DNA of 64,000 nucleotides from a virus (IMGVR_UViG_3300045988_150439); one strand, 5' to 3'. Numbered from the stretch's first letter, positions 2,999-53,324 are shown. Numbers and translations are program-made. Notes: a model not told the origin generated them from the sequence alone.

Positions 2999-3053
2999 GA
3001 CCTGTTTCTGTATATAAATAATAAGTAACTTATTAAATATACGGAAGCAGGTC
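2999..3053. repeat. 55-bp nested palindrome / hairpin directly after the KAP NTPase stop
   Basis: Arms gacctgtttctgtatat / atatacggaagcaggtc flank an AT-rich loop that itself contains the perfect palindrome aataagtAacttatt; a second copy lies at 53263-53324. Confidence 0.55.
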
Positions 3054-3159
3054 TTTCAAAAGATACCCACCAGAACAACTCCCTTCCGTTTCCACTTCCA
3101 AAAACTGCCACCAATCGCTATCATCAGCTCATTGTGATAAGTAAGTAACTACCTACCAG

Positions 3160-3909
3160 GTGAGCCACATGAGCCAAATCTTTTTCGACACCATCGACAA
3201 CGACCAGTACGACTTCATGACAGAGTGGAATACCGCTGTTATGGATAAGTGGGTTGCTGAAAACATTGGTTTGTCGCGCTGCAAAGACGAGGCTGAACTC
3301 TTCGATACGAAGTGGTTTGATTACCGCGACATGCATCCTCTTATGGCCACCTGTCTGTTTACGGAGGCATACAAACGTCAGTACTCAAATATCATGCTGA
3401 CGCACGGTCGCGAACACTTTGAAACAGCTCCGTTCACCACCGGGTTAAAACGCCTGCCTTATCAGGAGTTGTCGACTGCCAATAAAACGTCGCTATGGAA
3501 AGCACGCCAGTTTGCTGACCGCTATTGCTGCTCATACGACTACTTTATCTCCACCGTTCTTTCCGCAGCTGCACGACGTCTGTGGGACAAGCTGCCTCGC
3601 CCACAGCATTTGTGGCAGCCAGAACTGATTGAGATATTTGAAGAGAAATTAGCCAGACGCGCAACAACCCGTCTGGATGACTCTCTGGTTAGCTTTAAGC
3701 ATATAGGAGACATGCAGTTCAACCCGATCCAGGAAAGCTATTTTGAGTGGATTCTGGAGCGTTTACGCACCATCCCCCGCAGCAAGCGCATACGCGCAAT
3801 TTTCTCCGCTATCTGGCTAATGGAAATCGTTCCAGAGCGCCTTATTTCCGCCCACTTTCCAGAAGAACTGGAAGAAGCACGGCGGTTTATTGATCCCCTA
3901 TCCAATTAA
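3160..3909 (+). CDS. hypothetical protein
   Basis: 249 aa ORF in the coding strand of the block; GTG at 3160 or ATG at 3169; preceded by a taagta-type palindromic motif at 3135-3158. Confidence 0.45.
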   Translation: MSHMSQIFFDTIDNDQYDFMTEWNTAVMDKWVAENIGLSRCKDEAELFDTKWFDYRDMHPLMATCLFTEAYKRQYSNIMLTHGREHFETAPFTTGLKRLPYQELSTANKTSLWKARQFADRYCCSYDYFISTVLSAAARRLWDKLPRPQHLWQPELIEIFEEKLARRATTRLDDSLVSFKHIGDMQFNPIQESYFEWILERLRTIPRSKRIRAIFSAIWLMEIVPERLISAHFPEELEEARRFIDPLSN

Positions 3910-3952
3910 CTAATACTAGAAAACAATTTGTTTAAAAAACAAAGGAAAGCAC

Positions 3953-5293
3953 ATGACCGAACTTTGCCATACAGGACGCGGGCTGTCCGAAGAGTTTGAT
4001 GAAGATTTCCAGAACAGACTGACGGCATATTTTTGTCGTGATCACGAGTTTCTTACTCGTGCGGGAGATCTGGTTGTGCCTAGCCAATTTGCCAATGCGG
4101 CCAATGCCATATTGGTTAATATGGTTTCGGGCTATTACCGTATGTACAAGAGCGCGCCCTCTTCATCTGCAATTCTGGATATGCTTAAGCGTGCGAAACG
4201 CGATAAGACTATCCGTGAGGAACTATTCGCCGATGTTGTTGCTGCGTTTAAGCGCATCCTTGCAGAAAAATTGTCCGATACCTCGTACATGGTTGACCAG
4301 GTATCAACCTTCGCAAAAAGCGTAGCGTTTGATGATGCTCTGATTAAGGCTGCTGAACTGAAAGAGAAGGGCGACTTTCAGGGGGCGATGGCAATCATGG
4401 CCAAGGTTCAGCAGATTGGATCGAACGAAGCGACCGGAATCTATGACTACTACACCTCAGCAAGTGAGCGACTGAAAGCGCGTGAATATGAGGCCTCAGA
4501 GGAGTATGTGCCAAACAGTATTACAACTGGACTCCCTCTTCTCGATAGGTTGCTGTACCAAAAAGGCTGGGCAAAGCGCGAAATGGTGCTCTTCATGGGG
4601 TTCGCTAAATCCGGTAAATCGACCGCAATGGGTGAGTTTTCCATAAACGCAACGCTTGCTGGCTACAATGTTCTGTATCTCTCGCTGGAGGTTCACACCA
4701 CCATTTTATCCGACCGTTTTGACGCAAGATTGTCGGAGACAGAAATGTCCAAGCTGGTGGAACGGCGCGATGAGGTTCATCGTAAGTTGGCAGAGTTGGG
4801 AGCCACGAAGGGGATTGGTAGTTTGTGGGTGGTTGAGCGTCCGTCAGGAAGTATATCACCGGCAGATCTGGATCGTATGCTCAACAGCATGAAAGCCAAT
4901 GGCATGGTGCCTGACATGGTTGTTGTCGACTACGCAGATTTGATGCGTGCCAGTTATGACCTTCGTGATGATCGCGCCAACATTCGTAGTATCTACACCG
5001 ATTTGCGTGCTCTTTATGACAAGCATAACGTTGCTGGGATCACGGCATCGCAGACAAACCGTGAAGGTGGCGCGTCAGAAGTTGCCACAATGATGCACGC
5101 TGCCGACAACATCGAAAAAGTACGTATTGCTGACCTGGTAATAACGATCAACAAAACCGAAGAAGAAGAAGCGAAAGGAGAGGCTCGTCTCTACTTTGCT
5201 GGTTCACGTAACCAGCAGGGAGGGATCAGCATTCGCGTTAAACAAAACCTCGAACAAATGCGCTTCATTGAGCGAATCTTAGACGTTACCTAA
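3953..5293 (+). CDS. DnaB/gp41-like replicative DNA helicase
   Basis: C-terminal RecA-fold with Walker A GFAKSGKST and Walker B-like MVVVDYADLM; sits directly upstream of a primase-like gene. Confidence 0.6.
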   Translation: MTELCHTGRGLSEEFDEDFQNRLTAYFCRDHEFLTRAGDLVVPSQFANAANAILVNMVSGYYRMYKSAPSSSAILDMLKRAKRDKTIREELFADVVAAFKRILAEKLSDTSYMVDQVSTFAKSVAFDDALIKAAELKEKGDFQGAMAIMAKVQQIGSNEATGIYDYYTSASERLKAREYEASEEYVPNSITTGLPLLDRLLYQKGWAKREMVLFMGFAKSGKSTAMGEFSINATLAGYNVLYLSLEVHTTILSDRFDARLSETEMSKLVERRDEVHRKLAELGATKGIGSLWVVERPSGSISPADLDRMLNSMKANGMVPDMVVVDYADLMRASYDLRDDRANIRSIYTDLRALYDKHNVAGITASQTNREGGASEVATMMHAADNIEKVRIADLVITINKTEEEEAKGEARLYFAGSRNQQGGISIRVKQNLEQMRFIERILDVT

Positions 5294-5302
5294 AAAATAA
5301 GC

Positions 5303-6553
5303 GTGGAGAACACCTCCACGCTTGATTCATTTGTGAAACAACTTTTCTTTTGCCAAACCACAAAAGAAAAACACATGAGCCTTTATGTTATATCAACATT
5401 TAGGTTGGTCACAATATTGCCTATTAAAAGTGGAATTATCGTGAGCGAGCTGAAAGAGCTAATTACCGAATTAGATTTTGAACAATGGTTGGACACTGAA
5501 GGTATCGTTTATCGACGTGGAGGCGTGAGTGCTCGCGGTCGTGAAGTGAATATCAAGGAGTGTCCGGTATGCGGCAGCTCCAACTGGAAGGTATATTTCA
5601 ATCTGACCAGTGGTGTGGGTAAATGTTTCGCTGGCGACCATCCTGAAGAAATACAATTTAATAAGCTGGTGTTCCTCAAGCACTACAGCGGTAAATCACG
5701 GCGACAGTTCGAAGAATATGTGCAGAACGCCCTTCTTTCTCAGGGTTGGGCACCAAAGAAAGAAGAGATAGTGCTTGCAAGCACAGTCGAGTTAGAGGGG
5801 CCACTTGCACTCCCTCGTCATTACGAACTTCCTATAGATGGCCGTCTTCCAGACTATCTGGTTGAACGAAACATATCGCCTGAAATGGCAAAGTATTTTG
5901 ACCTACGATACTGCGTCGAAGGTAAGCACGCCTATGTAGATCCGTATACAGATCAGGTTAAAGGACAGATATTCGATATGCGAATACTGATACCGGTTTA
6001 CGATCTGGATGGGGTAATGAAGACATTTCAGGGACGAGACATTACCGGTACAGCAGAACGCCGCTACCTCTTTCCTATGCAGCTTCCAGCTTCAGGTAAA
6101 TTTCTCTACAACGGCCATAATGCAGTCGGCAAACAGACTGTAGTTGTCTGTGAGGGTGCGTTCGATGTTATGGGGGTCAAACGAGCTATTTTCGACGAAG
6201 AAACATTACGTGATTACGTGGAGCCAATAGGAACGTTCGGGATGCATCTATCTGGCAACACCACTCAGGATGCAGAAGATCAGTTGGGCGCGTTCCTGAC
6301 GCTCAAAGCGCGTGGATTACGTAATGTGATCATGATGTGGGATAGTGAAAAGCAAGCTATACGTAATACGATGGCCGCAGCCAGGCGACTGACCAGTATT
6401 GGTCTTAATGTCAAAGTGGCGTGTTTGGGCGAGGAAGGACTCGACCCGGGCGATGCAACGCCAGAGCAAATCATCAAAGCCTATTATCGGGCAAAACCGT
6501 ATACCAAGCAGTTGGAGTTACAAAGCAAGGTTTTGGGCATTAAGGCTCTATGA
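5303..6553 (+). CDS. DNA primase (zinc-binding plus TOPRIM), putative
   Basis: CPVCGSSNW...GKCFAG cysteine cluster followed by a TOPRIM-like VVVCEGAFDVMG acidic motif; adjacent to the helicase. Confidence 0.5.
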   Translation: MENTSTLDSFVKQLFFCQTTKEKHMSLYVISTFRLVTILPIKSGIIVSELKELITELDFEQWLDTEGIVYRRGGVSARGREVNIKECPVCGSSNWKVYFNLTSGVGKCFAGDHPEEIQFNKLVFLKHYSGKSRRQFEEYVQNALLSQGWAPKKEEIVLASTVELEGPLALPRHYELPIDGRLPDYLVERNISPEMAKYFDLRYCVEGKHAYVDPYTDQVKGQIFDMRILIPVYDLDGVMKTFQGRDITGTAERRYLFPMQLPASGKFLYNGHNAVGKQTVVVCEGAFDVMGVKRAIFDEETLRDYVEPIGTFGMHLSGNTTQDAEDQLGAFLTLKARGLRNVIMMWDSEKQAIRNTMAAARRLTSIGLNVKVACLGEEGLDPGDATPEQIIKAYYRAKPYTKQLELQSKVLGIKAL

Positions 6554-6631
6554 TAACAATCACCTTTAAAATAAGTAGATGATTACTTATCTTTCTGTGA
6601 GAATACTTTCATCTGTTAGCTAGGAGTTGGT

Positions 6632-7408
6632 ATGAAAGACGAAATTCAGAAATTAGCCTGCGACATCATTGATAAAACTGGTTTAGAAATCAGCGAGAGC
6701 AATCGGCTAGACATCATTGAAAAAGCCGTAAAAACAGCAATGGATCATATCGCCACTCGTTTGGTCGAGATCCCGCTACCAGGGCTACCTTATCTGAAAG
6801 TTGAGTTACACGTATGGGGTGAACCTTCTTGTTCACGGCGTTCTGCATTAGTTGTTTTTATTAGCAAAGAAAACCCGCTCAGTCTTAAAGTGCAGGTTGG
6901 TGCATGGATGGATGGAAAAGTGATCTACACAAATACCGTTTTTTGTCTTTCAAACGACGAAACTATTGAAGCGGCCATTCAAGAAGCAGTTCTAGCAATG
7001 CGCAGCAGCGGTTTGATGAAGAATAACTACGAAGAGTACTTGCGTTCGATAAGTGGTGAAAAGACATTATCTCTGAAAGCAGATTTCGTTACCCCGAAAA
7101 ATCTGTTGGAAGTCTTGCTTAATAAAGGGGCTAATGATGCCGTAAATGTAATCAGAGAGAGTGAGTATGCGTCTCTTTGCGACATGTGCAAAAGCCAGTT
7201 GGATCTGGTGCATATCGTTATTGATGCTGGGAAGGCATGTGATGGCGTAATGGCGGAATTTGCTTGGAAGGTGGTCAGGATTGCTAACGAATTACCGATG
7301 ATAGAGCAAGAGGCCAAATCATACGCCACCAATCATGTCACAGAGCTTCTTGTCCCCTATCGCTTAGAAAGCAATCAGCGCAAGATGGTTAGCTGGGGAA
7401 GTTGGTAA
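6632..7408 (+). CDS. hypothetical protein
   Basis: 258 aa ORF with RBS-like aggag upstream; no recognised motif. Confidence 0.45.
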   Translation: MKDEIQKLACDIIDKTGLEISESNRLDIIEKAVKTAMDHIATRLVEIPLPGLPYLKVELHVWGEPSCSRRSALVVFISKENPLSLKVQVGAWMDGKVIYTNTVFCLSNDETIEAAIQEAVLAMRSSGLMKNNYEEYLRSISGEKTLSLKADFVTPKNLLEVLLNKGANDAVNVIRESEYASLCDMCKSQLDLVHIVIDAGKACDGVMAEFAWKVVRIANELPMIEQEAKSYATNHVTELLVPYRLESNQRKMVSWGSW

Positions 7409-7463
7409 TCTCTCCGCGCGTCGTTTTTTACGCAAATAACGATAGGTAAGTACAAGATTATTT

Positions 7464-7946
7464 ATGGCGGTAGTTGTGAAAGCTGATTTGTCAAAAATCC
7501 CTTCTATTTCAGGAAATAACGGTTATTCACTTCGTTGTGAGGAAGTAAAGATAAACGGTGAGTCGGCATATTGCAGCTATTCCGTTTGCCAGCACACCAT
7601 TCTTGCCTTCAAAGAAAACCGTCTTCCTCGAACTTCTTTCCAGTCGTGCGCAACCGCTATTAAAGCAGGCAAATGCAAGGCGTTAAAAATGATGGTTGAA
7701 GAGATTCGTAAAGGAGAATCTCTGTATTTCGAAGATATGACCGCGCTCATTAAGGAGGTTGAAGAACGGAATAAACAAGCCAGAACTATAAAACGAAAAC
7801 GTGACAGTGTAACGATTAATAGCATGGTTAAGAAGAGCACCACATCACAAACAGCGATCACTGACGTGTATGCGGCGTTGCTTGAAGAAACAACAAAAGA
7901 AACACATGAGCAAATCGATCAACATATGGAGGCAAAACAACAATGA
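7464..7946 (+). CDS. hypothetical protein (Cys-rich)
   Basis: 160 aa ORF; start preceded by the gataggtaagtac motif; stop overlaps the ligase start. Confidence 0.4.
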   Translation: MAVVVKADLSKIPSISGNNGYSLRCEEVKINGESAYCSYSVCQHTILAFKENRLPRTSFQSCATAIKAGKCKALKMMVEEIRKGESLYFEDMTALIKEVEERNKQARTIKRKRDSVTINSMVKKSTTSQTAITDVYAALLEETTKETHEQIDQHMEAKQQ

Positions 7947-10076: not shown

Positions 10077-10466
10077 AAACATGGTGATAAGTATTTACTT
10101 ACTTATCTTTTATGTATAAGATGACTTTGTTTTCGTTGAGACGCGACTGTTTGAACTTAAATACAAGTGCAAACGAAGAAGTCTATCTGGCAGTAGCCTA
10201 ATAAGCCAAACACCAGCGAGGTCAGTTTCCAGCCTCGTTACCGAAATGGGACACACTGAGCGAGTGTGATTGCAGAACGCAGGAGGGAACATTCATGTTC
10301 CCTCCGATGAAGTAACAGAATGGGCGGTTGGTATATTTTCAACTCCATATGACTCCCGGATTCTTAGCCACTGACCGCCCATCCTGTTACGTCATTTTGT
10401 TCAATTATGTCGTTTATACTGGGTTAAAAAGCGGCGACGTAGCCCGGCTGGTATGGTTAGCCAGCA

Positions 10467-10588
10467 CACAACGTTGAGGCCATTACATTTTTATCAATTC
10501 TAAGGTTCTATTCACAGAGATACCGGCGAGCGTTGATATGTAACATGTTGGGCAAACATTCAATCGGAGTAGTGGCCTCAACGTTGTG
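10467..10588 (+). repeat. long-range hairpin element (16-bp perfect inverted repeat enclosing about 90 nt)
   Basis: cacaacgttgaggcca at 10467-10482 is the exact reverse complement of 10573-10588. Confidence 0.5.
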
Positions 10589-10854
10589 AAGACGGGATTG
10601 TTGTGTAGGTTTAACCACTGTTGCCATTGGTGCCTGTTTTCACAACAAATGATTCCATACATCACATTGTATAAATTACAAAGTAGGTGCTGTCCTCAGA
10701 AACATCATCTACTTAAAGATTTTGCCTTCTACTATTGAGCGAAGTCGAAAGCGTCTGGCACTAACGAAAAGTGCAAGTAGCGGTGCGTTTCCTGGCAGAA
10801 ACTAAACCGTCGCGATTGGCACTGTTGAGTAATAAATACTGGCAGTGCTGAATT

Positions 10855-10929
10855 GATGGTGTAGCTCAGCGGTAGAGCAGTTGGCTGTTAACCAACTGGT
10901 CGGTGGTTCGAATCCACCCACCATCGCCA
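10855..10929 (+). tRNA. tRNA-Asn (anticodon GTT)
   Basis: Hand-folded cloverleaf: acceptor gatggtg/caccatc, D-arm gctcagcggtagagc, anticodon loop ctGTTaa, T-arm ggtggttcgaatccacc, encoded CCA. Confidence 0.8.
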
Positions 10930-10932
10930 ATG

Positions 10933-11007
10933 CCGGTTTAGCTCAGTTGGTAGAGCACCTGCCTTGTAAGCAGGATGTCAGCGGTTCGATCCCGTTAACC
11001 GGCACCA
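10933..11007 (+). tRNA. tRNA-Thr (anticodon TGT)
   Basis: Acceptor gccggtt/aaccggc, D-arm gctcagttggtagagc, anticodon stem cctgc/gcagg with loop ctTGTaa, T-loop ttcgatc, encoded CCA. Confidence 0.75.
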
Positions 11008-11026
11008 ACACAACAGGTAAGAGCAT

Positions 11027-11100
11027 TGGGCGAATCGGCGATACTGACCCACAAGCCCGTAAATCGATAGAGTCAGACCAGTGCTCTTACCGTTGTGAGG
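11027..11100 (+). repeat. long-range hairpin element ending in cttaccgttgtga
   Basis: gtaagagcattgg pairs with ccagtgctcttac (one G-U) enclosing about 48 nt; not foldable as a tRNA. Confidence 0.4.
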
Positions 11101-11156
11101 AAGTGCAGCTCTTTGAAGCAACCAGAAGATAAGCATCTGGCTTCACAACACAACGA

Positions 11157-11219
11157 TAAGATCATTACGGTTAATCGTCGTTCATGTGCACAATGACTGG
11201 TCGAAAGGTAGTGATCTTA
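11157..11219 (+). repeat. long-range hairpin element ending in cttaccgttgtga
   Basis: taagatcattac pairs with gtagtgatctta (one G-U); same 3' tail as the element at 11027-11100. Confidence 0.4.
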
Positions 11220-11327
11220 CCGTTGTGATGAATGCACAGGCTGATGTGCCGCAACTACAGTAGTGCGCGCTTTGCGGGGCTTGCTACAACCCTGTGTCGG
11301 AGTTCAGCACCGACCATCACAATAGCT

Positions 11328-11414
11328 GGAGAGTAGGGAGCATGGTGCTCAAGCGGTCTTGAAAACCGTCCCATTGCGCAAGCGATGATGGTTCGATTCC
11401 ATTACTCTCCGCCA
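11328..11414 (+). tRNA. tRNA-Ser (anticodon TGA), long variable arm
   Basis: 87 nt; acceptor ggagagt/actctcc, anticodon loop ctTGAaa, long extra arm, T-loop ttcgatt, encoded CCA. Confidence 0.7.
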
Positions 11415-11417
11415 GAC

Positions 11418-11493
11418 ACAGCGTTGAGCGGTTTGGCCTTTTAATCACCCAGATTAAGACTCCGCTAACATAAACCAGACCGCTCAACGCTGT
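11418..11493 (+). repeat. long-range hairpin element immediately 3' of tRNA-Ser
   Basis: acagcgttgagcggt (11418-11432) is the exact reverse complement of 11479-11493. Confidence 0.45.
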
Positions 11494-11567
11494 GATAGAC
11501 AATTACGGCAGACGTTCTTAACCATAGCTTGCTAACATCCTAGCAACACTTTTTTTCAGCGCAAAAT

Positions 11568-24700: not shown

Positions 24701-24973
24701 AAAGAATTATGGCGCTTGTTGAGGAAGTCACTCCTCTTACGCACTTTGTTTTGCCATGCCGGCAGTTAGCTTCTGCCTTTGACTATTCATGCGGCAACCC
24801 CGCATTTCGCCACAATGGGCAATTCACTTTTATGGAATAAACTGGCCGTTGTGTCGATTTAATTAGCATGGCCTTACCATGCTAATTTATTCAACTTGTA
24901 AAATCCTACAAATCTATCCACTCAGGCTTACACCGTCTTCGTTATTGTAGAAATGAGGATCATCAGCGTTGAA

Positions 24974-25189
24974 TCAGCTTAGAGCAACGACATTTGCTGC
25001 TGCTGGGCCTTTAGCCCCATTCTCGATAGAGAATTCGACCTGCTGGCCTTCTTCCAAAGTGCGGAAATTATTACTCTGAATTGCCGAAAAATGTACAAAA
25101 ACATCTTTACTGCCATCAGCAGGAGAAATAAAGCCAAAGCCTTTATCAGAGTTAAACCATTTTACTAAACCAGTCATTTTATTAGACAT
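24974..25189 (-). CDS. CspA-family cold-shock protein (CspB/CspG/CspI-like)
   Basis: [38 protein letters not shown]... matches E. coli cold-shock proteins almost residue for residue; start taken at the internal ATG (25189) with RBS; long 5' leader upstream. Confidence 0.85.
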
Positions 25190-25518
25190 AGATACTACCT
25201 TCTTAATTTTGTGAGCCACATAGTGCGGCGAGAATTTGATCTGTATAGATTGGGACTTACTTAGGCACTTAAGGAGGAGACTCACGAAGAAGGGAAATCA
25301 GAAGATAACACTGAACTGAGACTGCTTTACTAAAACTGCTTACATAAGGTCTGTCTTGCAAACCAACGATGCTATTAACGCATACCCCTTCTTTTCATGC
25401 AACCTTTATTTTTCAAAGATAACTAATTTTTGTCACCATTGGTTTAGTAAACGTTAACGAACCAGACGATGCCAGACACCTTTACAGAGAACAGATGCCC
25501 GCCAATTGGCGGGCATCA

Positions 25519-29472: not shown

Positions 29473-31812
29473 ATGGCAAAAGGAAAATCCGCACTGGCAC
29501 TTGCTCTGAAAAAGAAAATCGGTAGCAACGACGAAATTCAGAAAGTAACTCATTGGATTGACACAGGCTTTCCTCCGTTAAACAAAGCTATTTCCGGTCG
29601 TTACGATGGCGGTTTCCCATGTGGTCGTATCGTAGAAGTATTCGGGCCACCAAGCGCGGGGAAATGTGTTACCGCAGACACCATGCTGCTGACGGAGCGT
29701 GGAATGGTAACAGTGAAAGAGTTGTTTGAGATTGAAGGGTACAAAGCGACATGCACTACTCGCGATGTAGAGCATAACGTTGGACTCATCAATGAAAATG
29801 GCGTGATAGAGAAGACCTCACACCTGACATGGAACAACCGTCGCAAATTCAAGCGTATTAAGCTGGCATCAGGCGGTTATATCGAGGCTACGTTCCGTCA
29901 CCCAATCCGTGTGGTTGACGACTTAGGTAATGTCGTCTGGCGACATGCTGAAAAAATCAGTGTAGGCGACACGATTCCTTCAATGGTTGGCACACATCAA
30001 TTCGGCGATCAGCACCTGGATGCCAATATCGCAAAACTGATGGGCTATTTAATTGCTGACGGATACGTGGCCTCTGAAAATTCAGTGAATTTTTCTAACA
30101 CAGATCCTTTCATCAAGGATGAGTACTACCGCCTCATTTCGCTGGTATCAGACAAGATGCCAGTTACGAGAAAACATAACGGCTCGGAAGACCATGTGCT
30201 GTTTAGCAAAGAGGTGCGTTCGCTGCTTTTTAAAGAATATGGTCTGGAGTATGAGAAAGCTGCTGGCAAGCAGGTTCCGTTGAGTGTGCGTCGCGCCAAT
30301 AGCGAGGCTCAAATTGCATTCCTTCGCGGCTACTTTGAGCTGGAATGCCACGTCAATGATGGTCGCTGCATTGAGGTTGTGAGCGCGAGTGGGCTGCTGC
30401 TACAGCAAATTCGCCTCATGCTCCTGAATCTGGGGATTACGTCAACTATCTCTGAAAAACACGTCGCGGGTTATGAAAATACATATTACCGGCTGTCATT
30501 CAGTGGCTCTAATTACGACCTTTTTCTGTCAACGATTGGTTTCGAATCTCCGGCACGTTTATCAGTGGCAACCAAACGGGACATTGGTTTTGACCGCACT
30601 TACTCAGGCTATGTTCCGCACATCAGCGGCTTAGTGAAATCACTCTACGAGTCGCTCACCAAGACCACCCGTGAAGACTACGCTCTGGTAGACCACGTTA
30701 TTGGCCGCGGCGATCGTGTCGGAATAGACAAACTGCGAGAAATCTATGTCTCCTTCATTGGCAGAAAGAATCGTTTTAACGAGCATCTGTTTGCACAACT
30801 GGCAGCGGTAATTGGCTCTAACTTGTTCTACGACGAAGTCGTGGCTATTGAGGAAGGTGAAGCACCAACGTTCGACGTAGCGATGCCGGAAACACACTCT
30901 TTCTGGTCTAACGGGATTATCAGCCACAACACATTCCTTGCAACAGCAGCGATGATCTCCGCACAGAAACAAGATGGTCTGGCGGTATTCCTCGATCATG
31001 AGAACAGTTTTGACGTTGGCCTGGCTGTAGCCAATGGCCTGAACGCAGATGAGGATGACGGTCAGTGGGTATACAAGCAGCCAGATACCTTCGAAGACTC
31101 TGTAGAGTTGATCGGCACAATACTTAAATTGGTTCGTGATGAAGAGCTTATCCCCGAATCAGCACCTATCTGTATCGTGGCTGACTCTCTTGCGTCTATG
31201 GTTCCGAACTCCAAAGCCGAGAAGTTCGAAAAGATGGCTGAAGGCACTGCCAAAGACAAAGATCAGCTAAACATGAACGACAATACGGCACTGGCTCGTG
31301 CGACGAGTGCGAACTTCCCTACTCTGGCTTTGTGGGCACGCAAATACAACGCCTGCATCATCTTCTTGAATCAGGTTCGCACAAAAATCGGTGTAATGTT
31401 TGGCGACCCTACTACGTCGCCAGGTGGAGATTCACCGAAGTTCTACGCTTCTGTACGTATCCGTCTTGGTGCATCGGTGATGAAGGATGGTAAAGAGAAG
31501 ATCGGCCAGGACGTAGGCGCAGAATGCATCAAAAACAAAGTTGCACCACCGTATGGCAAATGCACCTGGAAATTCTACTTCGATCCTACTCGTGGCCTCG
31601 ACGTTATCGAATCGCTCGTCGAGTACATGCTGGAAGAAGGATACCTGCCAAAGAACGCCAGCGGGCGAGTTGAAATTGGTGACAAGAAATACACCAAATC
31701 GCAGATCGTCGAGATGTATCGGGAGAAGCCATTAGCAGAAATCATTGCTGCGTTACAGACGATAGATGACCGACGAGAGAAGACATCACCAACAGAAGAA
31801 CTAGAAGATTAA
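29473..31812 (+). CDS. recA: RecA-family recombinase interrupted by an intein
   Basis: N-extein ends GRIVEVFGPPSAGK; C-extein begins TFLATAAMISAQKQ and carries ICIVADSLASM, IIFLNQVRTKIGVMFGDPTTSPGG and KFYASVRIRL, all RecA signatures. Confidence 0.8.
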   Translation: MAKGKSALALALKKKIGSNDEIQKVTHWIDTGFPPLNKAISGRYDGGFPCGRIVEVFGPPSAGKCVTADTMLLTERGMVTVKELFEIEGYKATCTTRDVEHNVGLINENGVIEKTSHLTWNNRRKFKRIKLASGGYIEATFRHPIRVVDDLGNVVWRHAEKISVGDTIPSMVGTHQFGDQHLDANIAKLMGYLIADGYVASENSVNFSNTDPFIKDEYYRLISLVSDKMPVTRKHNGSEDHVLFSKEVRSLLFKEYGLEYEKAAGKQVPLSVRRANSEAQIAFLRGYFELECHVNDGRCIEVVSASGLLLQQIRLMLLNLGITSTISEKHVAGYENTYYRLSFSGSNYDLFLSTIGFESPARLSVATKRDIGFDRTYSGYVPHISGLVKSLYESLTKTTREDYALVDHVIGRGDRVGIDKLREIYVSFIGRKNRFNEHLFAQLAAVIGSNLFYDEVVAIEEGEAPTFDVAMPETHSFWSNGIISHNTFLATAAMISAQKQDGLAVFLDHENSFDVGLAVANGLNADEDDGQWVYKQPDTFEDSVELIGTILKLVRDEELIPESAPICIVADSLASMVPNSKAEKFEKMAEGTAKDKDQLNMNDNTALARATSANFPTLALWARKYNACIIFLNQVRTKIGVMFGDPTTSPGGDSPKFYASVRIRLGASVMKDGKEKIGQDVGAECIKNKVAPPYGKCTWKFYFDPTRGLDVIESLVEYMLEEGYLPKNASGRVEIGDKKYTKSQIVEMYREKPLAEIIAALQTIDDRREKTSPTEELED
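29665..30930 (+). mobile_element. intein with LAGLIDADG homing-endonuclease domain, inserted in the RecA P-loop
   Basis: Begins with Cys (CVTADTMLL), ends SHN followed by Thr; two LAGLIDADG-type motifs (LMGYLIADGYV and FLRGYFELECHV); removing the 422 codons restores GPPSAGKT. Confidence 0.75.
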
Positions 31813-42346: not shown

Positions 42347-42354
42347 GGTGATAC

Positions 42355-44670: not shown

Positions 44671-44675
44671 CATAT

Positions 44676-46954: not shown

Positions 46955-47030
46955 TCTGTCTGGTCTTGTTCTCTCAATGAATGTAAACTCACATGATGAA
47001 TAAGTAATTACTTATCTTTGTGAGGTTTTT

Positions 47031-48134
47031 GTGTCACTCCTTTTGAATCGTGAGCATACGAACGGTCAGGTAACAAACGCATCGTATGCAAAAGTTATTG
47101 AGACGGTGCTTAAAAGCGGCGTGCAGGCTGATGATCGCACAGGCACTGGTACTTTAAGCACCTGCTACGTTCCCTCTTATTACATGCTTACTGGTGGGAC
47201 TGTGCCGCTTATTTCTGGAAAGGCGGTAAATCTTAAGCCACTGCTTGTCGAACTTGAGTGGTATCTGAAAGGCACGGGCAACATCCAATTTCTCAAGGAT
47301 AACGGCGTTAAGATTTGGGATGCATGGGCCGATGAGAATGGCGATTTGGGGCCGGTTTACGGTAAGCAGTGGCGTCGATGGGAAGATACCCGCATCGTGA
47401 GCCATAGTGAATATCTGAGCAAGATCGATACTTTCCGTGAACGCGGGTACAAAGTCGAGGGATACCTGGGTATCAGTGAAGATCGCGTAGTGCTATCCCG
47501 TGAAATCGATCAGCTACAGCGTATTGTCGATACACTGCGCACGAACCCTACCGATCGTCGCATCATGCTTAACGCATGGAACGTAGGCGAGCTTGAGGAT
47601 ATGAAACTGCCACCTTGCCACTTTGTCTTCTCTTTGTGGAGTCGTGAGCTGGATTTTGAAACCCGTTTAACGATGGCAACTGACATTGGTCTTCAACACA
47701 GTCGCCTCGGTTACGAGTCTATCTACACCAAGATGCTATACGATCTGGAGATGGACGGCAGTGTTACTGAAGCTGAACTGGATGAACTTGGAATCCCCAA
47801 ACGCATCCTCAACTCCTGCCTCGTACAGCGTAGCGTAGACACTTTTGTTGGTATGCCATTCAATATTGCTGGCTATGGCATTCTCACTCATTTTCTCGCG
47901 AAGATTACGGGTCACATGGCCGGTGCATTTGTGCATTTTGGCTTTGACGTGCATTTGTACAACAACCACATGGAAGGTGTGTGTGAGCTAATGAAACGAC
48001 AAGCTCCAGAGCATTCAGATCCGGTCGTTATTTTCCCTCATGAATGGTCAGAGTTGGATGATTTCAAATGGGACGAGGTTTTAATTCTTGGCTATGACCC
48101 TCTACCGTGGATCAAGGTTCCAGTGGCGGTGTGA
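47031..48134 (+). CDS. thyA: thymidylate synthase, with an internal insertion of roughly 50 aa
   Basis: DRTGTGTLS, IWDAWADENGDLGPVYGKQWRRW, DRRIMLNAWNVGELEDMKLPPCH, FNIAGYG and C-terminal GYDPLPWIKVPVAV closely match E. coli ThyA; GTG start. Confidence 0.85.
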   Translation: MSLLLNREHTNGQVTNASYAKVIETVLKSGVQADDRTGTGTLSTCYVPSYYMLTGGTVPLISGKAVNLKPLLVELEWYLKGTGNIQFLKDNGVKIWDAWADENGDLGPVYGKQWRRWEDTRIVSHSEYLSKIDTFRERGYKVEGYLGISEDRVVLSREIDQLQRIVDTLRTNPTDRRIMLNAWNVGELEDMKLPPCHFVFSLWSRELDFETRLTMATDIGLQHSRLGYESIYTKMLYDLEMDGSVTEAELDELGIPKRILNSCLVQRSVDTFVGMPFNIAGYGILTHFLAKITGHMAGAFVHFGFDVHLYNNHMEGVCELMKRQAPEHSDPVVIFPHEWSELDDFKWDEVLILGYDPLPWIKVPVAV

Positions 48135-48135
48135 T

Positions 48136-48549
48136 ATGGCAAGAGGTATGTATGTCTTATGCGAAATTGAAGGTGTGCTGGCAAATACCAGCCATCGTAA
48201 ATCTGTATCTGACTCGGATGCAGGCCAATTCATTGCCGGTGATGAACTCATTTTCCCCACCAGCCGTATGTTGCGTGGTTTTGCTCGCTCAGGGGCTGAA
48301 GTGGTGCTTATCAGTAGCCGCTCTGAAACTCTTGAAGCGCCCACTAAACGATGGCTGAAAGATTTTGGTGTTGATTACGACTGGCTTCATCTCGTACCGA
48401 ATAGCACCAGTTATGAGAAGCATATTAAGCGCACATTAGCGGAGCATAAAGGCGATCTGCTTATCGCTGCGCTGGTGCACGATCCTCGACTCCGTGCCGC
48501 TTTAGCTGACTCTCATCATAGACCGGTCATCTATGAGGTGAGCAAATGA
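48136..48549 (+). CDS. hypothetical protein
   Basis: 137 aa from the ATG just after the thyA stop; stop overlaps the DHFR start. Confidence 0.4.
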   Translation: MARGMYVLCEIEGVLANTSHRKSVSDSDAGQFIAGDELIFPTSRMLRGFARSGAEVVLISSRSETLEAPTKRWLKDFGVDYDWLHLVPNSTSYEKHIKRTLAEHKGDLLIAALVHDPRLRAALADSHHRPVIYEVSK

Positions 48550-49022
48550 AGATGATAGCTGCTGTTGGCCGTAACTATGAGATCGGCATAGCGAACGAAC
48601 TGCCCTGGCGTTGTTCTACCGATCTGAAGCTATTTAAGAGACTCACCAAAAACGCCACTGTCGTTATGGGGCGTAAAACGATGGAAAGTCTCAAACGCCC
48701 TCTTCCAGAGCGTCATAACCTCGTTTTGACGCGCTCTCATGGCTTTGTACCAAATGGATTCTACCCTGCTGGTGTGGATGATGTGTTGCGATTACCAGAG
48801 CCTGTGTGGGTGATTGGCGGGGAACAAATTTACTCGCTATTCATGCCGCATGTTGAAGAGATTTGGCTCTCCCACATCGGCGTTGATGTGCCAAACGCCG
48901 ATGCATTCTTCCCGGCAAGCATGATGCGTAATTTAGGCTTTGTGCCTGTTGAAACAGTTTTTACCCAACGAGCCAGCGAGGAAGAGCCTGGCTTTTCGCA
49001 GATCGTATACAGAAGGTCGTAA
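48546..49022 (+). CDS. folA: dihydrofolate reductase
   Basis: MIAAVGRNYEIGIANELPWR, VVMGRKTMESL and VWVIGGEQIY are canonical DHFR segments. Confidence 0.8.
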   Translation: MKMIAAVGRNYEIGIANELPWRCSTDLKLFKRLTKNATVVMGRKTMESLKRPLPERHNLVLTRSHGFVPNGFYPAGVDDVLRLPEPVWVIGGEQIYSLFMPHVEEIWLSHIGVDVPNADAFFPASMMRNLGFVPVETVFTQRASEEEPGFSQIVYRRS

Positions 49023-49666
49023 TGGATTACCGGATTGGGATCACTGGTGCTCAGGGCAGTGGGAAAACAACCCTGGCTAAATATATCGACAAACATTACG
49101 GAATCCCTTACGTGGATGCTGGTGTCGGAAGTTTGATGAGCCGCCTCGGTGTTCGAGTAGGTGATTCTATGCCTCTATATGAGCGGCTTCAGATTCAAAT
49201 GGAAATAGCAAAGCATATAGAGCTACTTACGCGTGGTGTTGAAGGCTTTGTTATCGATCGCACACCTGCTGATGTTATGGCCTACACGTTGGATTTGGTC
49301 GGCCATACAAATGAAGATCGGTGTATTGAGTTAGCCCTCGATATCGAAAAGTTTTGCCACAAAACTGCTATTTCAAACTTTAACGCCATTGCTGGCCTAC
49401 GCCCGGGGGTCGCTCTCTCAGAGCGAGATTACTTGCGGTCACAACGAGCATCATTAGACCGTCTGTATGTCGCTCGTATTGATGCGTTGATGTGCGGGGA
49501 ACTGACAAAAATTCACCTGCATCCGCAAAGGGGAGATCTGCAAACCTTCGTCGTTTCCAACCGGTATCGCACAGTTGAAGCAAGAGCCAGATCAGTGATG
49601 AGAATGCTAGATAACGCTGTAGAAAAGATAGAAAACCGGTTCTGTGGCCGAGTGACCGTTCATTAG
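49022..49666 (+). CDS. P-loop NTPase, putative nucleotide kinase
   Basis: Walker A GITGAQGSGKTT at the N-terminus; 214 aa; located in the nucleotide-metabolism cluster. Confidence 0.4.
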   Translation: MDYRIGITGAQGSGKTTLAKYIDKHYGIPYVDAGVGSLMSRLGVRVGDSMPLYERLQIQMEIAKHIELLTRGVEGFVIDRTPADVMAYTLDLVGHTNEDRCIELALDIEKFCHKTAISNFNAIAGLRPGVALSERDYLRSQRASLDRLYVARIDALMCGELTKIHLHPQRGDLQTFVVSNRYRTVEARARSVMRMLDNAVEKIENRFCGRVTVH

Positions 49667-49727
49667 AAATTGTTCGCCTCTTCGACATTGCGACAATAAA
49701 ACTCTCAAAATGGGTTAAGGATAAAAA

Positions 49728-50147
49728 ATGTTTAGTGAAATGTTGCTTGAAGATGAACTGGATCGGAAAACAACAGAGGCTTTGATTCGTGTAGCGGACG
49801 AACATTCCCGGTCGCTTATGAGCGATCGAGAGGCTCGTCTGGCTATTCGTGCCATATTCGAAACTGCGCAGGGGCTTGTTGGTACACAAGTGGGTGAAGC
49901 CATTAACATCGCCATGTCTCAGTTCAGTGAAGGCAGTAAAAAGCCTCTGTTTCCTATGCATTTGATGCTGGCTGGTGGCACGGTGCTTTATATCTCTGTT
50001 TGTCTGGATAGCAACCAAATCAATATTCTCAACACTGTGTCAGGTAAGTGGAAAGATCCGATTGTCTGTGAAACCAGTGAAGAAACTTTGAAAAAAGCGG
50101 CTCAATTTGTACGTAGCGCACTACTTAAGGGCGCTAAGAAGTTGTAA
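49728..50147 (+). CDS. hypothetical protein
   Basis: 139 aa ORF. Confidence 0.4.
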   Translation: MFSEMLLEDELDRKTTEALIRVADEHSRSLMSDREARLAIRAIFETAQGLVGTQVGEAINIAMSQFSEGSKKPLFPMHLMLAGGTVLYISVCLDSNQINILNTVSGKWKDPIVCETSEETLKKAAQFVRSALLKGAKKL

Positions 50148-50156
50148 GGAGTAGTA

Positions 50157-50951
50157 ATGGGACAACCGGTAGACATAACAGGTAAACGTTTTGGAAAGTT
50201 GGTTGCACTTAAATATTCCGGTATTTCAAACAAACAAGGGCGACTTTGGGATTGCATCTGCGATTGCGGCAACACCTGCCTGGTTAGTTACGGGAAGCTA
50301 AATCACGGGGCGACAATATCGTGTGGCTGTGTCTACAACGCACATCGCCGTAGCGTAAAGCCTCATGGTATGAGTAAAACGCCAATTTATCGTATATGGC
50401 TGGGTATGCGGGAACGATGTGAAAAACCAACCCATCACGCCTATAAGTGGTATGGCGGCCGAGGTATCAAAGTCTGCGAGCGGTGGCAAATATTTGAAAA
50501 CTTTTATGCTGACATGGGAGAGCGACCAGAGGGGATGTCTCTTGATCGCAAAGATGTGAATGGTGACTACGAACCTGAAAATTGCAGATGGGCGACTTTT
50601 GAAGAACAGGCCAATAACACGCGTTCAAACTTAATTTTGGAGCATAAGGGGGAAAAGCTGACTCTCTCACAATGGGCTAAAAGAGCCGGGATTCAGACAT
50701 CAACTCTTCACTATCGAATCAAGAAAGGGTGGCCATTAGATCGCGCGCTTAACGCCAGCGTCGACACGTATGCCAACCGAGATAGTAAGCGTCTGATCGA
50801 GTGTCGCGGCAGAACTCAGCGAATTACCGAATGGGCTAGAGAGGTTGGCTTGACTGCGACCATTATATCGCAGCGAATCTTGAGGGGGTGGGATGTTGAA
50901 GCTGCCATCTTCACACCGTCCAAACGACCAGTAAAAGGAGATAAAAAGTGA
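50157..50951 (+). CDS. free-standing homing-endonuclease-like DNA-binding protein (HNH/AP2-like), putative
   Basis: Cys/His cluster CICDCGNTCLVSYGKLNHGATISCGC, AP2-like segment YRIWLGMRERC...YKWYGGRGIKVCERW, and two repeated HTH-like modules (LSQWAKRAGI..., ITEWAREVGL...). Confidence 0.4.
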   Translation: MGQPVDITGKRFGKLVALKYSGISNKQGRLWDCICDCGNTCLVSYGKLNHGATISCGCVYNAHRRSVKPHGMSKTPIYRIWLGMRERCEKPTHHAYKWYGGRGIKVCERWQIFENFYADMGERPEGMSLDRKDVNGDYEPENCRWATFEEQANNTRSNLILEHKGEKLTLSQWAKRAGIQTSTLHYRIKKGWPLDRALNASVDTYANRDSKRLIECRGRTQRITEWAREVGLTATIISQRILRGWDVEAAIFTPSKRPVKGDKK

Positions 50952-51496
50952 TTGCTACAGGGGTGGACATCGAATCAACAGGTCTTGATTTCCTCTCAGG
51001 CCATAAAATCATTGAAATCGCAATGGTGAAGTACGAAATTGAGACACAGACAATGGTTGATAGTTTTGTAATGCGGTTCAACCCGCGTCGCAGTATCGAT
51101 CCGAAAGCGCAAGCGGTACACGGCATCAGTCTTGAAGATTTAGCCGCCGAGCCGTTACTAGCCGATCACGCTTCATCTGTCGCTTCGTATCTCTCTTCTT
51201 CCGATATTTGGATAGCCCACAACGGCGAAGCGTTCGATATTCCGTTTATTAGGCATGAGCTGAAAAGTTACGGTTTTTCGCTTCCAGACATCCCATTGAT
51301 TGACACTCTATTTTCCCTGTGGGCCACAGAAGACGGTAAACGTCCACGCCTTGAAGAGTTGGCCTTCTCTCTTGGCTTTATATACGATCATGCCAAAGCA
51401 CATAGTGCCTTATATGACACAAACTTAATGATGCAATGCTTCTTTAAGGCACGTAATAAGTACGGATTTTTTAAATTACCCTCTGAAATTGTGTAA
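50948..51496 (+). CDS. DnaQ-like 3'-5' exonuclease (DEDDh family)
   Basis: Exo I GVDIESTG, Exo II IAHNGEAFDIPF, Exo III HSALYDT; GTG start with aaggag RBS. Confidence 0.65.
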   Translation: MIATGVDIESTGLDFLSGHKIIEIAMVKYEIETQTMVDSFVMRFNPRRSIDPKAQAVHGISLEDLAAEPLLADHASSVASYLSSSDIWIAHNGEAFDIPFIRHELKSYGFSLPDIPLIDTLFSLWATEDGKRPRLEELAFSLGFIYDHAKAHSALYDTNLMMQCFFKARNKYGFFKLPSEIV

Positions 51497-51499
51497 AAC

Positions 51500-51538
51500 A
51501 AAAGCCTACTTTAAAAAGTTTAAAGTAGGCTTTCTTTT
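51500..51538 (+). terminator. Rho-independent terminator
   Basis: aaagcctacttta...taaagtaggcttt long hairpin followed by cttttaa. Confidence 0.65.
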
Positions 51539-51654
51539 AAAGAACAGTCGCCTTTCAATCATTTCCTGCCTGTATTTAATACTTTTCCGCCTGATAGGTT
51601 TAGTCAAAATGTAGCCATCGAAACGCAAATGTAACCAAACAGAAGGAGACTTAC

Positions 51655-52464
51655 ATGAGTTCGGTTGAAAATGTAATGACAAATTATGATCTGGACGAAC
51701 TGACAGCCATGTTGCAATCACTTGATGAACCGGTAAAAAAAGCTGCACAGGTTGAAAATACTGATGATATTGACGATCTGCTGCTCGGCCTAGATGCTGG
51801 CGTAGCCATGAGTTCTGATGATGTTGCCGAAGAACTGTTCAATGAAGAAAAAGCAGGTGATTTCAGCTCTGCTTTAAATGAGTTGGAGTTAGCGCATGAG
51901 CCTATAAACGTAATTAACGCTGAAAGTGTTGAAGCTGCCGAAAACGAGCCAGAACAATTGGGATTTATTGAGGTTGAAGAGTGTGTTGAGGTTAATGATG
52001 AATTAAAAGTTCAACAGTCAAATGATAGCAACACAAATAAAAAAGCGCGTACTGCAAGAGGTCCTCGTTTTACTCTAAGTGATAAAGATGATGCGTTTTT
52101 CAATAAAGCGGGTTTAGAGAAAGATATTTTTTTAGATGCTTATGAGAACGCGCCTGTCAAAGCAAAGGATAAGATATTAAACCTTCTTAATTGGTTTAGC
52201 GGAGGTCCAGATATTAGTGTTTACACGGTAATTTCCATGAGACACCTTCTCACAGAAAAGAAGGCTACAAGTAATAGTATTAAGATTGCTTTAATGAGCA
52301 ATCCAGAAAAACCGTATCCGCTTAACACTGCGTCAACTCAGGCTGGGCAAATGATGGCTGTATTTCCAGCTACAGGAATTGCTGTTAGAGACGGTGGAAA
52401 TCTAACATTGAACGAAGAATCACCGATCGTTAATAAGTTTGTCGCGGAGTACACTATTGGATGA
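51655..52464 (+). CDS. acidic hypothetical protein
   Basis: 269 aa, strongly D/E-rich N-terminal half. Confidence 0.45.
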   Translation: MSSVENVMTNYDLDELTAMLQSLDEPVKKAAQVENTDDIDDLLLGLDAGVAMSSDDVAEELFNEEKAGDFSSALNELELAHEPINVINAESVEAAENEPEQLGFIEVEECVEVNDELKVQQSNDSNTNKKARTARGPRFTLSDKDDAFFNKAGLEKDIFLDAYENAPVKAKDKILNLLNWFSGGPDISVYTVISMRHLLTEKKATSNSIKIALMSNPEKPYPLNTASTQAGQMMAVFPATGIAVRDGGNLTLNEESPIVNKFVAEYTIG

Positions 52465-52647
52465 CGTTCCCCTACTGAAAATAAAGCCCATAGAGAGCTT
52501 TATAGTGCTGGGTAAGCCAATCACATACCCAGCACCACAAAAACGCGCCAGAGAGCTTCTCGTTTGCATTTCTGGCGCGTTTTATTTGATTGCCAGACAT
52601 AAAATCAAATGCAAAAATAGGTAATCACTTACCTATCGAGAAAGAAG

Positions 52648-53241
52648 ATGATTGCAGCCGAAAAAATCAAACAGCGAAAGCGCGACAACTCTCTTCGTGA
52701 CCTCTGGAGAACACCTGATTGGCTGTTTTCTGCCATTCAACGTTATCTTGGAGTGACATTTGATGTTGACGTTGCCTGCAACAAGGACAACGCAAAGCTG
52801 CCTAATTTCATAGGCATTGAGCGTGATGCTTTGAAATCTGAATGGGGACAGCCAGGTACAATTGCCTTCCTCAATCCACCCTACTCCAAAATCTCCCCCT
52901 GGATTGATGCTGCTATACGTGAGCAGGCTCGCGGAGTTACAACAGTGATGCTAATTCCTCAATCCCTCGATACAAAGTGGTATGAGCGTGCAACAGAGTA
53001 TGCGAATGAGACGATTATTCTGTCTGGTGGCCGCGTAGCGTTTGTCGAGCCTGACGTCAATTTGGGTCAGGTAGAAGTAAACATCAACCCCGGTGGCAGT
53101 ATGCTCGTTGTTTTTCGAGGATTCTGTCAGGACGCTGGGCACTCTATAAGCAAGATCCCTTTGGACGTCATGAAAAGTCTGGGAGGGTATAATCCTGCGA
53201 ATGTGATCAGGAAAAAAAGACCATCAAAGAAGGCTGCTTAG
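52648..53241 (+). CDS. DNA N6-adenine methyltransferase (phage Dam-like)
   Basis: NPPY catalytic motif (FLNPPYSKISPW) and size (197 aa) fit small phage N6A methyltransferases. Confidence 0.6.
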   Translation: MIAAEKIKQRKRDNSLRDLWRTPDWLFSAIQRYLGVTFDVDVACNKDNAKLPNFIGIERDALKSEWGQPGTIAFLNPPYSKISPWIDAAIREQARGVTTVMLIPQSLDTKWYERATEYANETIILSGGRVAFVEPDVNLGQVEVNINPGGSMLVVFRGFCQDAGHSISKIPLDVMKSLGGYNPANVIRKKRPSKKAA

Positions 53242-53262
53242 TTTGCTCTGGCGTCTGTAATT

Positions 53263-53324
53263 AGCCTGCTTCTGTATATATATAAATAACTACATATTAA
53301 TTATTAATATACGGAAGCAGGCTG
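53263..53324. repeat. second copy of the nested palindrome / hairpin seen at 2999-3053
   Basis: Arms agcctgcttctgtatatat / atatacggaagcaggct around an AT-rich loop containing tataaata; followed by gttttgt. Confidence 0.55.

Follow-up and report, generated by a model that had tools for sequence, protein, structure and literature searches.

We analysed a 64,000-nt stretch of viral DNA, IMGVR_UViG_3300045988_150439 (hereafter the window), in which an earlier note had pointed to two large palindromes about 50 kb apart. The window belongs to an E. coli phage-plasmid of the SSU5/pHCM2/pMT1 group and is ~96-98% identical to many 107-113-kb plasmids and ~81% identical to phage SSU5. The two palindromes (hairpins S1 and S2) were found to be members of a three-copy family occupying fixed slots in these elements. 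We suggest that they are probably paralogous terminator/insulator hairpins at the borders of co-directional gene blocks of SSU5/pHCM2-type phage-plasmids. The features around both hairpins are as follows.

217-885, plus strand: gene of a ParA-like ATPase (Pfam MipZ/ParA/CbiA), in the same operon as the next gene; the operon ends at S1
885-1244, plus strand: 119-aa partner gene of the ParA-like ATPase, no Pfam match
1287-2990, plus strand: gene of a KAP-family P-loop NTPase (Pfam PF07693, 24.8 bits against a cut-off of 20)
2999-3053, plus strand: S1 hairpin (copy 1), arms 2999-3015 GACCTGTTTCTGTATAT and 3037-3053 ATATACGGAAGCAGGTC, 17 pairs including 2 T:G
3019-3025/3029-3035, plus strand: inner stem of S1, 7 bp inside the AT-rich loop, with a 3-nt apical loop at 3026-3028
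3054-3062, plus strand: tail after S1, TTTCAAAAG, a weak U run of 3 U (TTTC; TTTCAAAA)
3070-3076, plus strand: CCAGAAC, downstream half of an outer inverted repeat (TCTGG...CCAGA) at S1, its upstream partner missing in the KAP-cassette allele
3096-3124, plus strand: putative sigma-70-type promoter TTCCAA-N17-TATCAT, read from aligned sequences, for the 246-aa gene and the helicase/primase block
3169-3909, plus strand: 246-aa gene, first after S1, no Pfam match; then a DnaB-like helicase gene (3953-5293) and a primase gene
52648-53241, plus strand: gene of a Dam-family N6-adenine methyltransferase (Pfam PF05869, E = 5e-38), last before S2
53247-53251, plus strand: TCTGG, upstream half of the outer inverted repeat at S2
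53263-53323, plus strand: S2 hairpin (copy 2), arms 53263-53279 AGCCTGCTTCTGTATAT and 53307-53323 ATATACGGAAGCAGGCT, 17 pairs including 1 T:G
53324-53333, plus strand: tail after S2, GTTTTGTATC (GTTTTGTA), 5 T in the first 8 bases
53341-53345, plus strand: CCAGA, downstream half of the outer inverted repeat at S2
53429-53659, plus strand: 76-aa gene, first after S2, no Pfam match

Both palindromes were recovered where the earlier note had placed them. They lie on the strand of the flanking genes, which is the transcribed strand, share arms of 15-17 nt (CCTGyTTCTGTATAT / ATATACGGAAGCAGG) and carry TATAAATA in their loops; the 27-nt centre of copy 2 is AT-rich and partly paired. Copy 1 starts 8 nt past the TAA (2988-2990) of the 567-aa KAP_NTPase reading frame and copy 2 starts 21 nt past the TAG (53239-53241) of the 197-aa Dam-family frame. 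The described position right after a stop codon thus holds for both window copies but is not universal, as S1 of pHCM2 lies beside the start of an oppositely oriented gene.

The plus-strand RNA of copy 1 folds at -28.7 kcal/mol (z = -7.45; minus strand -19.2) and that of copy 2 at -32.4 kcal/mol (z = -5.68; minus strand -29.2). The covariance model R1, built from 23 distinct hairpin copies of relatives, scored copy 1 at 76.6 bits and copy 2 at 77.6 bits (E ~1e-14), and its search found no further copy in the 64-kb window. The arm 15-mer with up to 3 mismatches gave 5 matches in the window against 1.26 expected, and none of 100 shuffles reached 5. An exact repeated 15-mer alone is not significant in 64 kb, where ~2 such pairs are expected, and the case for real copies rests on the whole 55-62-nt architecture and on the conservation outside the window. 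Copy 2 is the longest inverted repeat of the window and was the only one of the two listed by the repeat scan, which missed copy 1 because its T:G positions leave no exact 8-nt seed.

The family is larger than the two copies counted originally: both are real, but a third exists outside the window, before terS. In the close complete relative NZ_CP027358.1, a third exact arm copy lies between an 88-aa gene and terS/terL. R1 detected exactly three copies each in NZ_CP027358.1 (E. coli), SSU5, pHCM2 and K. pneumoniae pKp_SB611_2, in the same slots throughout, and one copy (S3) in the reduced Yersinia pestis pMT1. The slots are bordered by the following genes.

S1: upstream, the ParA-like gene, the 119-aa gene and a variable gene; downstream, the 246-aa gene, DnaB-like helicase and primase
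S2: upstream, the Dam methylase; downstream, the 76-aa gene
S3: upstream, the 88-aa gene ending a ParB-domain/ABC-ATPase cluster; downstream, terS-terL

S1, S2 and S3 of SSU5 lie at ~33.5 kb, ~78.3 kb and ~0 kb, splitting its co-directional genome into three blocks, and the suggestion that such palindromes mark module boundaries was borne out at all three block borders. In a sample of loci drawn by their neighbouring proteins, without reference to the hairpin, 73 of 76 S3 loci, 67 of 77 S2 loci and 74 of 80 S1 loci contained it. The conservation of the palindromes in related elements, which the earlier note had proposed to look for, was therefore found in E. coli, Salmonella (SSU5, pHCM2) and Klebsiella; the same hairpin in three slots across these hosts, and in one slot of pMT1, agrees with the common descent and common function that had been read from the shared arms. 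A BLAST tally of up to 6 places per plasmid is a double count, because a palindrome matches both strands, and the true number is 3. The IMG/VR pattern demanded CTGTATAT on the left, which biased that sample towards the U:G form. A fourth slot (type B), considered for Salmonella and Klebsiella S2 copies, was dropped when the neighbour-protein sampling identified these as mis-oriented S2 copies.

Wider searches added little. The scan of genome contigs with the 15-mer ATATACRGAAGCAGG returned almost only chance matches in unrelated taxa, with one Kluyvera contig that may be genuine. The scan of viral contigs with the 14-mer TATGGGAGCAAGGC was dominated by chance matches, and a two-arm pattern gave only the already known S2 copy of one distant genome. 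No Rfam 15 family was at or above its gathering score, the sub-threshold matches being generic long hairpins (microRNA precursors), and literature searches found no account of these palindromes.

Orthologous hairpins of the E. coli, Salmonella and Klebsiella types are 89-95% identical, compared with 74-84% for adjacent coding DNA and 67-83% for other intergenic DNA. Between the paralogous hairpins of a genome, identity is 75-86%, and their flanks are unrelated. The right arm ATATACGGAAGCAGG hardly varies among the three slots and several genera. In pHCM2 the arms are perfect at all three sites (CCTGCTTCCGTATA/TATACGGAAGCAGG), and this form is probably ancestral. Changes were often found to be compensated, both in the arms (CCG/CGG to CTG/CGG to CTG/CAG; TTCCG/CGGAA to TTTCG/CGAAA) and at the stem base, where AG/CT, GA/TC and AA/TT replace each other; relatives with a methylase of 61-64% identity have new sequence in each of the two arms (CCTTGCTCCCATA/TATGGGAGCAAGG and GCCGTGTTCCCATA/TATCGGAGCACGGC). 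Uncompensated mismatches also occur, for instance in Klebsiella S3.

The transcribed strand folds better in 31 of 35 S1 alleles and in 17 of 27 S3 alleles. On the mRNA strand, G:U pairs and A.C mismatches number 45 and 2 at S1, 12 and 2 at S3, and 10 and 11 at S2; the counts reflect few independent events, because the alleles are related. Variant arms recur at different slots (one genome has the CGAAAG right arm at both S2 and S3) and on both sides of the palindrome, a hint that the hairpin copies exchange sequence.

Most S1, S2 and S3 copies are enclosed by an outer inverted repeat, with TCTGG(GAG) 10-30 nt upstream and (CTC)CCAGA 15-35 nt downstream. The extended folds with the outer helix cover 110-130 nt at -46 to -61 kcal/mol (S2, S3). 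Both halves of this repeat, TCTGGGAG...CTCCCAGA, are invariant in the aligned copies and provide zero covariation, so that their pairing is unproven. The upstream half is missing in the S1 allele of the window, where the KAP cassette extends up to the hairpin.

Several observations point to a transcription terminator. The stem base RRCCUGCUUC/GAAGCAGGYY is stable and GC-containing and lies on the transcribed strand, as in terminator stems. The hairpin is followed mostly by TTTT or TTTTT in S1 alleles and by (G)TTTT or TTTTT in S2 alleles. In pCAV1015-111 and the L401-407 group, a degenerate hairpin at S1 and S2 is directly followed by canonical terminators with a GC stem and T run, and at S3 these elements and pCAVP366-109 have a weaker hairpin with T8 or longer T-rich runs behind it. 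Across the wider group, the slots are thus positions of terminators. S1 and S2 of K. oxytoca pCAV1015-111 share a ~55-nt unit, CCCCTTAATTAAAAGATTTTAAAAAGAGCTTTAAATACTATCyrGAGCmAGGyT (L613:7490-7700, L614:9755-9860), which is without a good left arm and precedes the canonical terminators and a TCTGGG motif. Although the palindrome has decayed there, sequence like the right arm seems to have been retained.

Transcriptomic data are available for the Cyrano lysogen of E. coli LF82 (PMC9928086, S1 Table). Upstream of S1, the normalised counts are 50 for CYRAN_28 (ParA-like), 89 for CYRAN_29 (119-aa gene) and 55 for CYRAN_30 (cassette gene); CYRAN_31, the orthologue of the window's 246-aa gene, lies 194 nt downstream on the same strand and has 6.2, with a floor of 5 (PMC9928086). 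In the B6 samples the signal across S1 falls from log2 10.4 to 2.6, ~200-fold (PMC9928086). In Cyrano, a perfect 18-bp S1 hairpin with TTTT behind it is the one strong structure of the S1 intergenic region. The terminator role named among several possibilities in the earlier note is thus supported by the fall of RNA to the floor across the S1 region, by the U runs at S1 and S2 and by the canonical terminators in the same slots of distant relatives; its factor-dependent form found no support, as nothing requires a factor. The anatomy, the fixed positions, the conservation, the compensatory changes and the drop of RNA across S1 in a close relative are observed; the hairpin as the cause of this drop, and an S1-like action of S2 and S3, are inferred. 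The terminator/insulator reading is best supported for S1, reasonable for S2 and weak for S3.

According to this proposal, the RNA would fold into a long stem, GC-rich over the 10 bp of its base and AU-rich above, and at S1 and S2 this stem with its short U run would be an intrinsic-type terminator, or at least a barrier defining RNA 3' ends. In the plasmid (lysogenic) state, the par operon and the gene in the accessory slot would be transcribed, and S1 would end the transcript ahead of the replication genes. The silent lytic and replication genes would be insulated from the plasmid-state genes, and a downstream promoter would restart the next block. S2 and S3 probably have the same role at their own borders. 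The copies would descend from one ancestor, their likeness being kept by gene conversion between copies, by selection, or by both.

A number of points weigh against a terminator. S3 has no U run (CTTCGTAAG, CTCTTAAT), and the S1 tail of the window has only three U. The arms of the two window copies are separated by 21 and 27 nt (a loop region of 21-28 nt), unlike the short loop (3-8 nt) of the usual terminator, although these regions partly pair and leave 3-7-nt apical loops above internal loops, and the terminator scan of the window listed neither hairpin. S2 is without strand bias in its G:U and A.C positions, and SSU5 and Klebsiella S2 carry the variant arm on the right, which places mismatches in the mRNA strand. 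The Cyrano step at S3 is small at a low signal (log2 5.5 to 3.9 and 6.5 to 4.9-5.6; PMC9928086); the data are uninformative for S2, because the genes on both sides are silent. The drop at S1 is a gene-level one, compatible with termination at the hairpin or with rapid decay of the downstream RNA, which it does not separate. A plain terminator would need neither the same 15-nt arm at three sites across genera nor an invariant outer repeat. It also leaves unexplained the combination of S3 without a U run and a second small hairpin before terS.

Such features would leave space for regulated read-through. The hairpins might be control sites recognised by a specific partner, possibly on top of basal termination, a reading that we regard as tentative and on balance unlikely. 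In one variant, a phage or host factor binds the arms as RNA (compare lambda N/nut boxB and HK022 put), and lytic induction opens all three borders. In a second variant, an extended stem as in lambda sib/tI forms once polymerase passes the U run into CTCCCAGAC and becomes an RNase III substrate, destabilising the upstream message. The near-invariance of the right arm is consistent with this, as sequence and not pairing alone is kept. So is the finding that in distant lineages the slots of one genome share a lineage-specific arm (TATCTGGAGCCAGGTT, TATCCAGAGCAAGGCT and TATCCAGAGCACGGCT in pCAV1015-111), and that the predicted outer helix links sequence upstream of the hairpin with sequence past the U run. 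Approximately 70 nt past S3, a small GC hairpin with a T run stands directly before the terS ribosome-binding site and is kept as far as Acinetobacter; the late genes therefore seem to need read-through. However, no candidate factor and no Rfam family match were found, and the outer repeat is without covariation and incomplete in the window S1 allele. Gene conversion could explain shared arms such as CGAAAG, and transcripts from the predicted S1 promoter, downstream of the hairpin, would lack the site.

The terS-proximal hairpin, GGAGCGCAAGGATGCGCTC TGAGTGTTTT AGAGGGATCTATG, was observed at L002:5880-5925 (minus strand), in SSU5 (L125:95-135) and in Acinetobacter (L616:1385-1436), and hints at a need for read-through or antitermination in late-gene expression. 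Within it lies CGCTCTGA, which differs from lambda boxA by one base. A lambda-type nut site consists of boxA (CGCTCTTA) followed by a short boxB hairpin, located downstream of an early promoter and working with an N-like protein. By eye, no boxA was seen beside S1 or S2. In its fullest form, the read-through proposal would make the three hairpins and the outer repeat one regulon of switchable barriers, terminating in the plasmid state and read through at induction by means of a phage-plasmid-specific factor or RNA processing, perhaps with sib-like decay of the upstream messages. We consider such a regulon possible, with the chances clearly against it.

The earlier note had also considered recombination hotspots, and the S1 region is indeed variable. 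The window segment 1245-2998, from the 119-aa gene to S1, corresponds to a hypervariable accessory-gene slot (equivalent stretch in L412-L491). More than 20 alternative cassettes, on either strand, occupy it in related elements, the KAP NTPase being the occupant in the window. The range of occupants includes two KAP NTPase types (~40% apart), DUF2971, a GIY-YIG-like protein, proteins of 357 aa and 387 aa, a lipoprotein and two-gene pairs, and the slot can also be empty. It has the look of a hotspot for defence or accessory genes that are expressed together with the par operon.

The palindromes could on this ground have their primary role in DNA, as short homologous linkers for the exchange of modules or cassettes, as proposed for the PeSL motifs of T4-like phages. 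Where E. coli relatives lack the KAP gene, their similarity to the window sets in only a few bases from the left edge of the S1 hairpin, and 20 or more unrelated sequences, on either strand, adjoin S1 on its upstream side. The variant arms shared between slots and palindrome sides suggest exchange between copies, the element itself encodes a recombinase and an exonuclease, and PeSLs are described as exchange points between otherwise unrelated sequences (PMC4122927). Nevertheless, only S1 has a variable slot, the neighbours of S2 and S3 being constant on both sides. No hairpin copy stands at the far end of this slot, behind the 119-aa gene, and a second linker is therefore missing. Were the three direct copies to recombine, 25-45 kb would be lost. 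An expressed insertion slot would also naturally end, on its 3' side, at a terminator, and the boundary can thus be explained without recombination. We find a linker role rather improbable. Of the hotspot claim, the boundary of variability at S1 stands, with more than 20 unrelated cassettes abutting the hairpin; a causal part of the hairpin in recombination does not follow from it. Such a boundary would be expected just as well if the terminator did no more than define how far, on its 3' side, an expressed insertion site can safely extend.

Finally, a role of the palindromes as protein-bound sites, in duplex DNA or as extruded cruciforms, is very unlikely, whether as N15-like dispersed centromeres, repressor roadblocks or cos/pac at S3. 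S1 does lie downstream of the parA operon and S3 downstream of two ParB-domain genes and directly upstream of terS, and N15 has four separate SopB-binding inverted repeats, IR1-IR4 (PMC7205306). Yet ParB-type sites are contiguous 16-bp palindromes, whereas the arms here are 21-30 bp apart around a centre that differs between slots, and pMT1 keeps S3 though its par system is a different, P1-type one. The arm ends CTGTATAT / ATATACAG resemble LexA half-sites, but their spacing is ~39 instead of N8 and the likely ancestral arm has CCG, not CTG. The linear SSU5 GenBank record, and the Cyrano record (OV696614.1) aligned to it, open inside the S3 loop (...CTTATTA, then AATATATACGG...); assemblies commonly break a contig within a palindrome that is present three times, and three terminase cutting sites per genome would fragment the genome. 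A folded strand accounts better for the compensatory arm changes than a fixed half-site for a protein would.

The joined ends of the SSU5 record (L127:3261-3299 to L125:1-22) place the opening in the AT-rich S3 loop, 134 nt upstream of terS; it could be a true genome end, an assembly break at the repeated palindrome or a copied convention.

Specific known elements were compared with the hairpins and rejected. A ParB/SopB centromere (parS, N15 IR) needs a contiguous identical palindrome of ~16 bp, and here the separated arms enclose a centre that differs between S1/S3 and S2. For a LexA (SOS) box, CTGT-N8-ACAG, the candidate halves CTGTATAT and ATATAC(A/G)G are too far apart, and many alleles have CCG/CGG. 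For an integron attC site (RYYYAAC...GTTRRRY), the arms CCTGCTTCYGTATAT/ATATACGGAAGCAGG have no GTTRRRY core and form no array. The T4-late-promoter reading of TATAAATA and a sigma-70 -10 element in the loop were both dropped, for want of a convincing hexamer having A at position 2 and T at position 6 and because the Klebsiella S3 allele is without the motif (TATAACTA).

Regarding the neighbouring genes, the promoter-like sequence TTCCAA-N17-TATCAT starts 43 nt past S1 and is kept in SSU5, pHCM2 and Klebsiella, with TTTCAA-N17-TATCAT in pCAV1015-111. It was not among the candidates listed by the promoter scan. Its conservation would fit a stop-then-restart arrangement at S1; candidate promoters after S2 and S3 are weak or were not found. 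The Pfam search gave nothing for the terS, 88-aa, 246-aa, 76-aa and 119-aa neighbours, and no binding-protein candidate. CYRAN_29 (L619:2385-2744, corresponding to window 885-1244) is labelled 'RelE/ParE putative toxin' in the Cyrano record, which is probably a mis-annotation; the position of the 119-aa gene suggests the centromere-binding partner of the ParA-like ATPase.

Elsewhere in the window, a canonical two-way terminator-like palindrome, AAACAAAAGCCTACTTTAAA / TTTAAAGTAGGCTTTCTTTT, was detected at 51496-51538, directly past a reading frame ending at 51496; the element therefore uses ordinary terminators too, of a form unlike that of the S hairpins. Two tRNA genes (10855-10926 and 10932-11004, within 10307-11494) lie among four long inverted-repeat pairs with 20-23-nt arms 38-82 nt apart (e.g., CACAACGTTGAGGCCATTAC/GTAGTGGCCTCAACGTTGTG), and the tRNA regions of phages P7 and D6 share ~86% identity with the tRNA stretch. 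At 24949-25367 on the minus strand, the Rfam cspA thermoregulator is matched over its full length (183.9 bits, E = 8e-49); the element has a cold-shock protein gene together with the 5' leader of that gene. The 779-aa reading frame at 29473-31812 (plus strand) has a counterpart annotated as LAGLIDADG homing endonuclease in relatives and a 358-aa recombinase at that place in SSU5 and pHCM2; the frame probably encodes a RecA/UvsX-like recombinase that contains an intein.

Phage-plasmids of the SSU5/pHCM2/pMT1 type are often found in clinical Enterobacteriaceae and bear genes for defence and resistance. Their transcriptional organisation is essentially undescribed. The hairpins provide three landmarks that divide the ~105-110-kb genome into units and could be used as markers to annotate module borders and to locate the accessory slot in new genomes. 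The slot before S1 tolerates unrelated accessory genes, the inserts being expressed with the par operon and insulated from the replication genes under the terminator/insulator proposal. If a specific factor reads the shared sequence, it would offer a handle on the lysogeny-to-lysis switch of the group, and a regulon of switchable barriers would couple plasmid maintenance, the accessory slot and the lytic programme through a single RNA element.

Compared with known systems, the S hairpins share with intrinsic terminators a transcribed-strand hairpin with a GC-rich base just past a stop codon, 3-5 U at S1 and S2, the gene-level collapse of RNA across the S1 orthologue in a lysogen and the presence of canonical terminators in the same slots of distant relatives. 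They differ in a stem of ~25 pairs with a large AU-rich upper part instead of a 3-8-nt loop, in a U run that is short or, at S3, absent, in one arm sequence present in three copies across genera and in the extra outer repeat. As in lambda sib/tI, the terminator stem could be extended by sequence past the termination point, giving a long duplex in read-through transcripts only; here, however, the predicted outer helix shows no covariation and is missing in the window S1 allele.

RNase III processing sites of T7 form a related family of ~60-nt hairpins between genes, on the transcribed strand, with an internal loop in a long duplex. The S hairpins are likewise related ~60-nt intergenic hairpins on the transcribed strand with an internal loop, but the RNA drop across S1 argues for the end of transcription and not for the cutting of a continuous transcript. 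The PeSLs of T4-like phages (PMC2839356, PMC4122927) are also repeated intergenic motifs, a stem-loop near a promoter (here a putative one after S1), at the edges of variable insertions and with lineage-specific sequence. PeSLs are many, short and clustered in hyperplastic regions, where they flank indels between close relatives; the S hairpins are three, long and at fixed borders, with one side of one slot (S1) variable. The N15 repeats IR1-IR4 (PMC7205306) are similar as few copies of one palindrome dispersed over a phage-plasmid genome, but they are contiguous 16-bp SopB palindromes (GTGCGACCnnGGTCGCAC), while 21-30 AT-rich bases separate the 15-17-nt arms here and no ParB-type binding is indicated. 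The S hairpins are thus a well-defined family of probable phage terminator/boundary hairpins.

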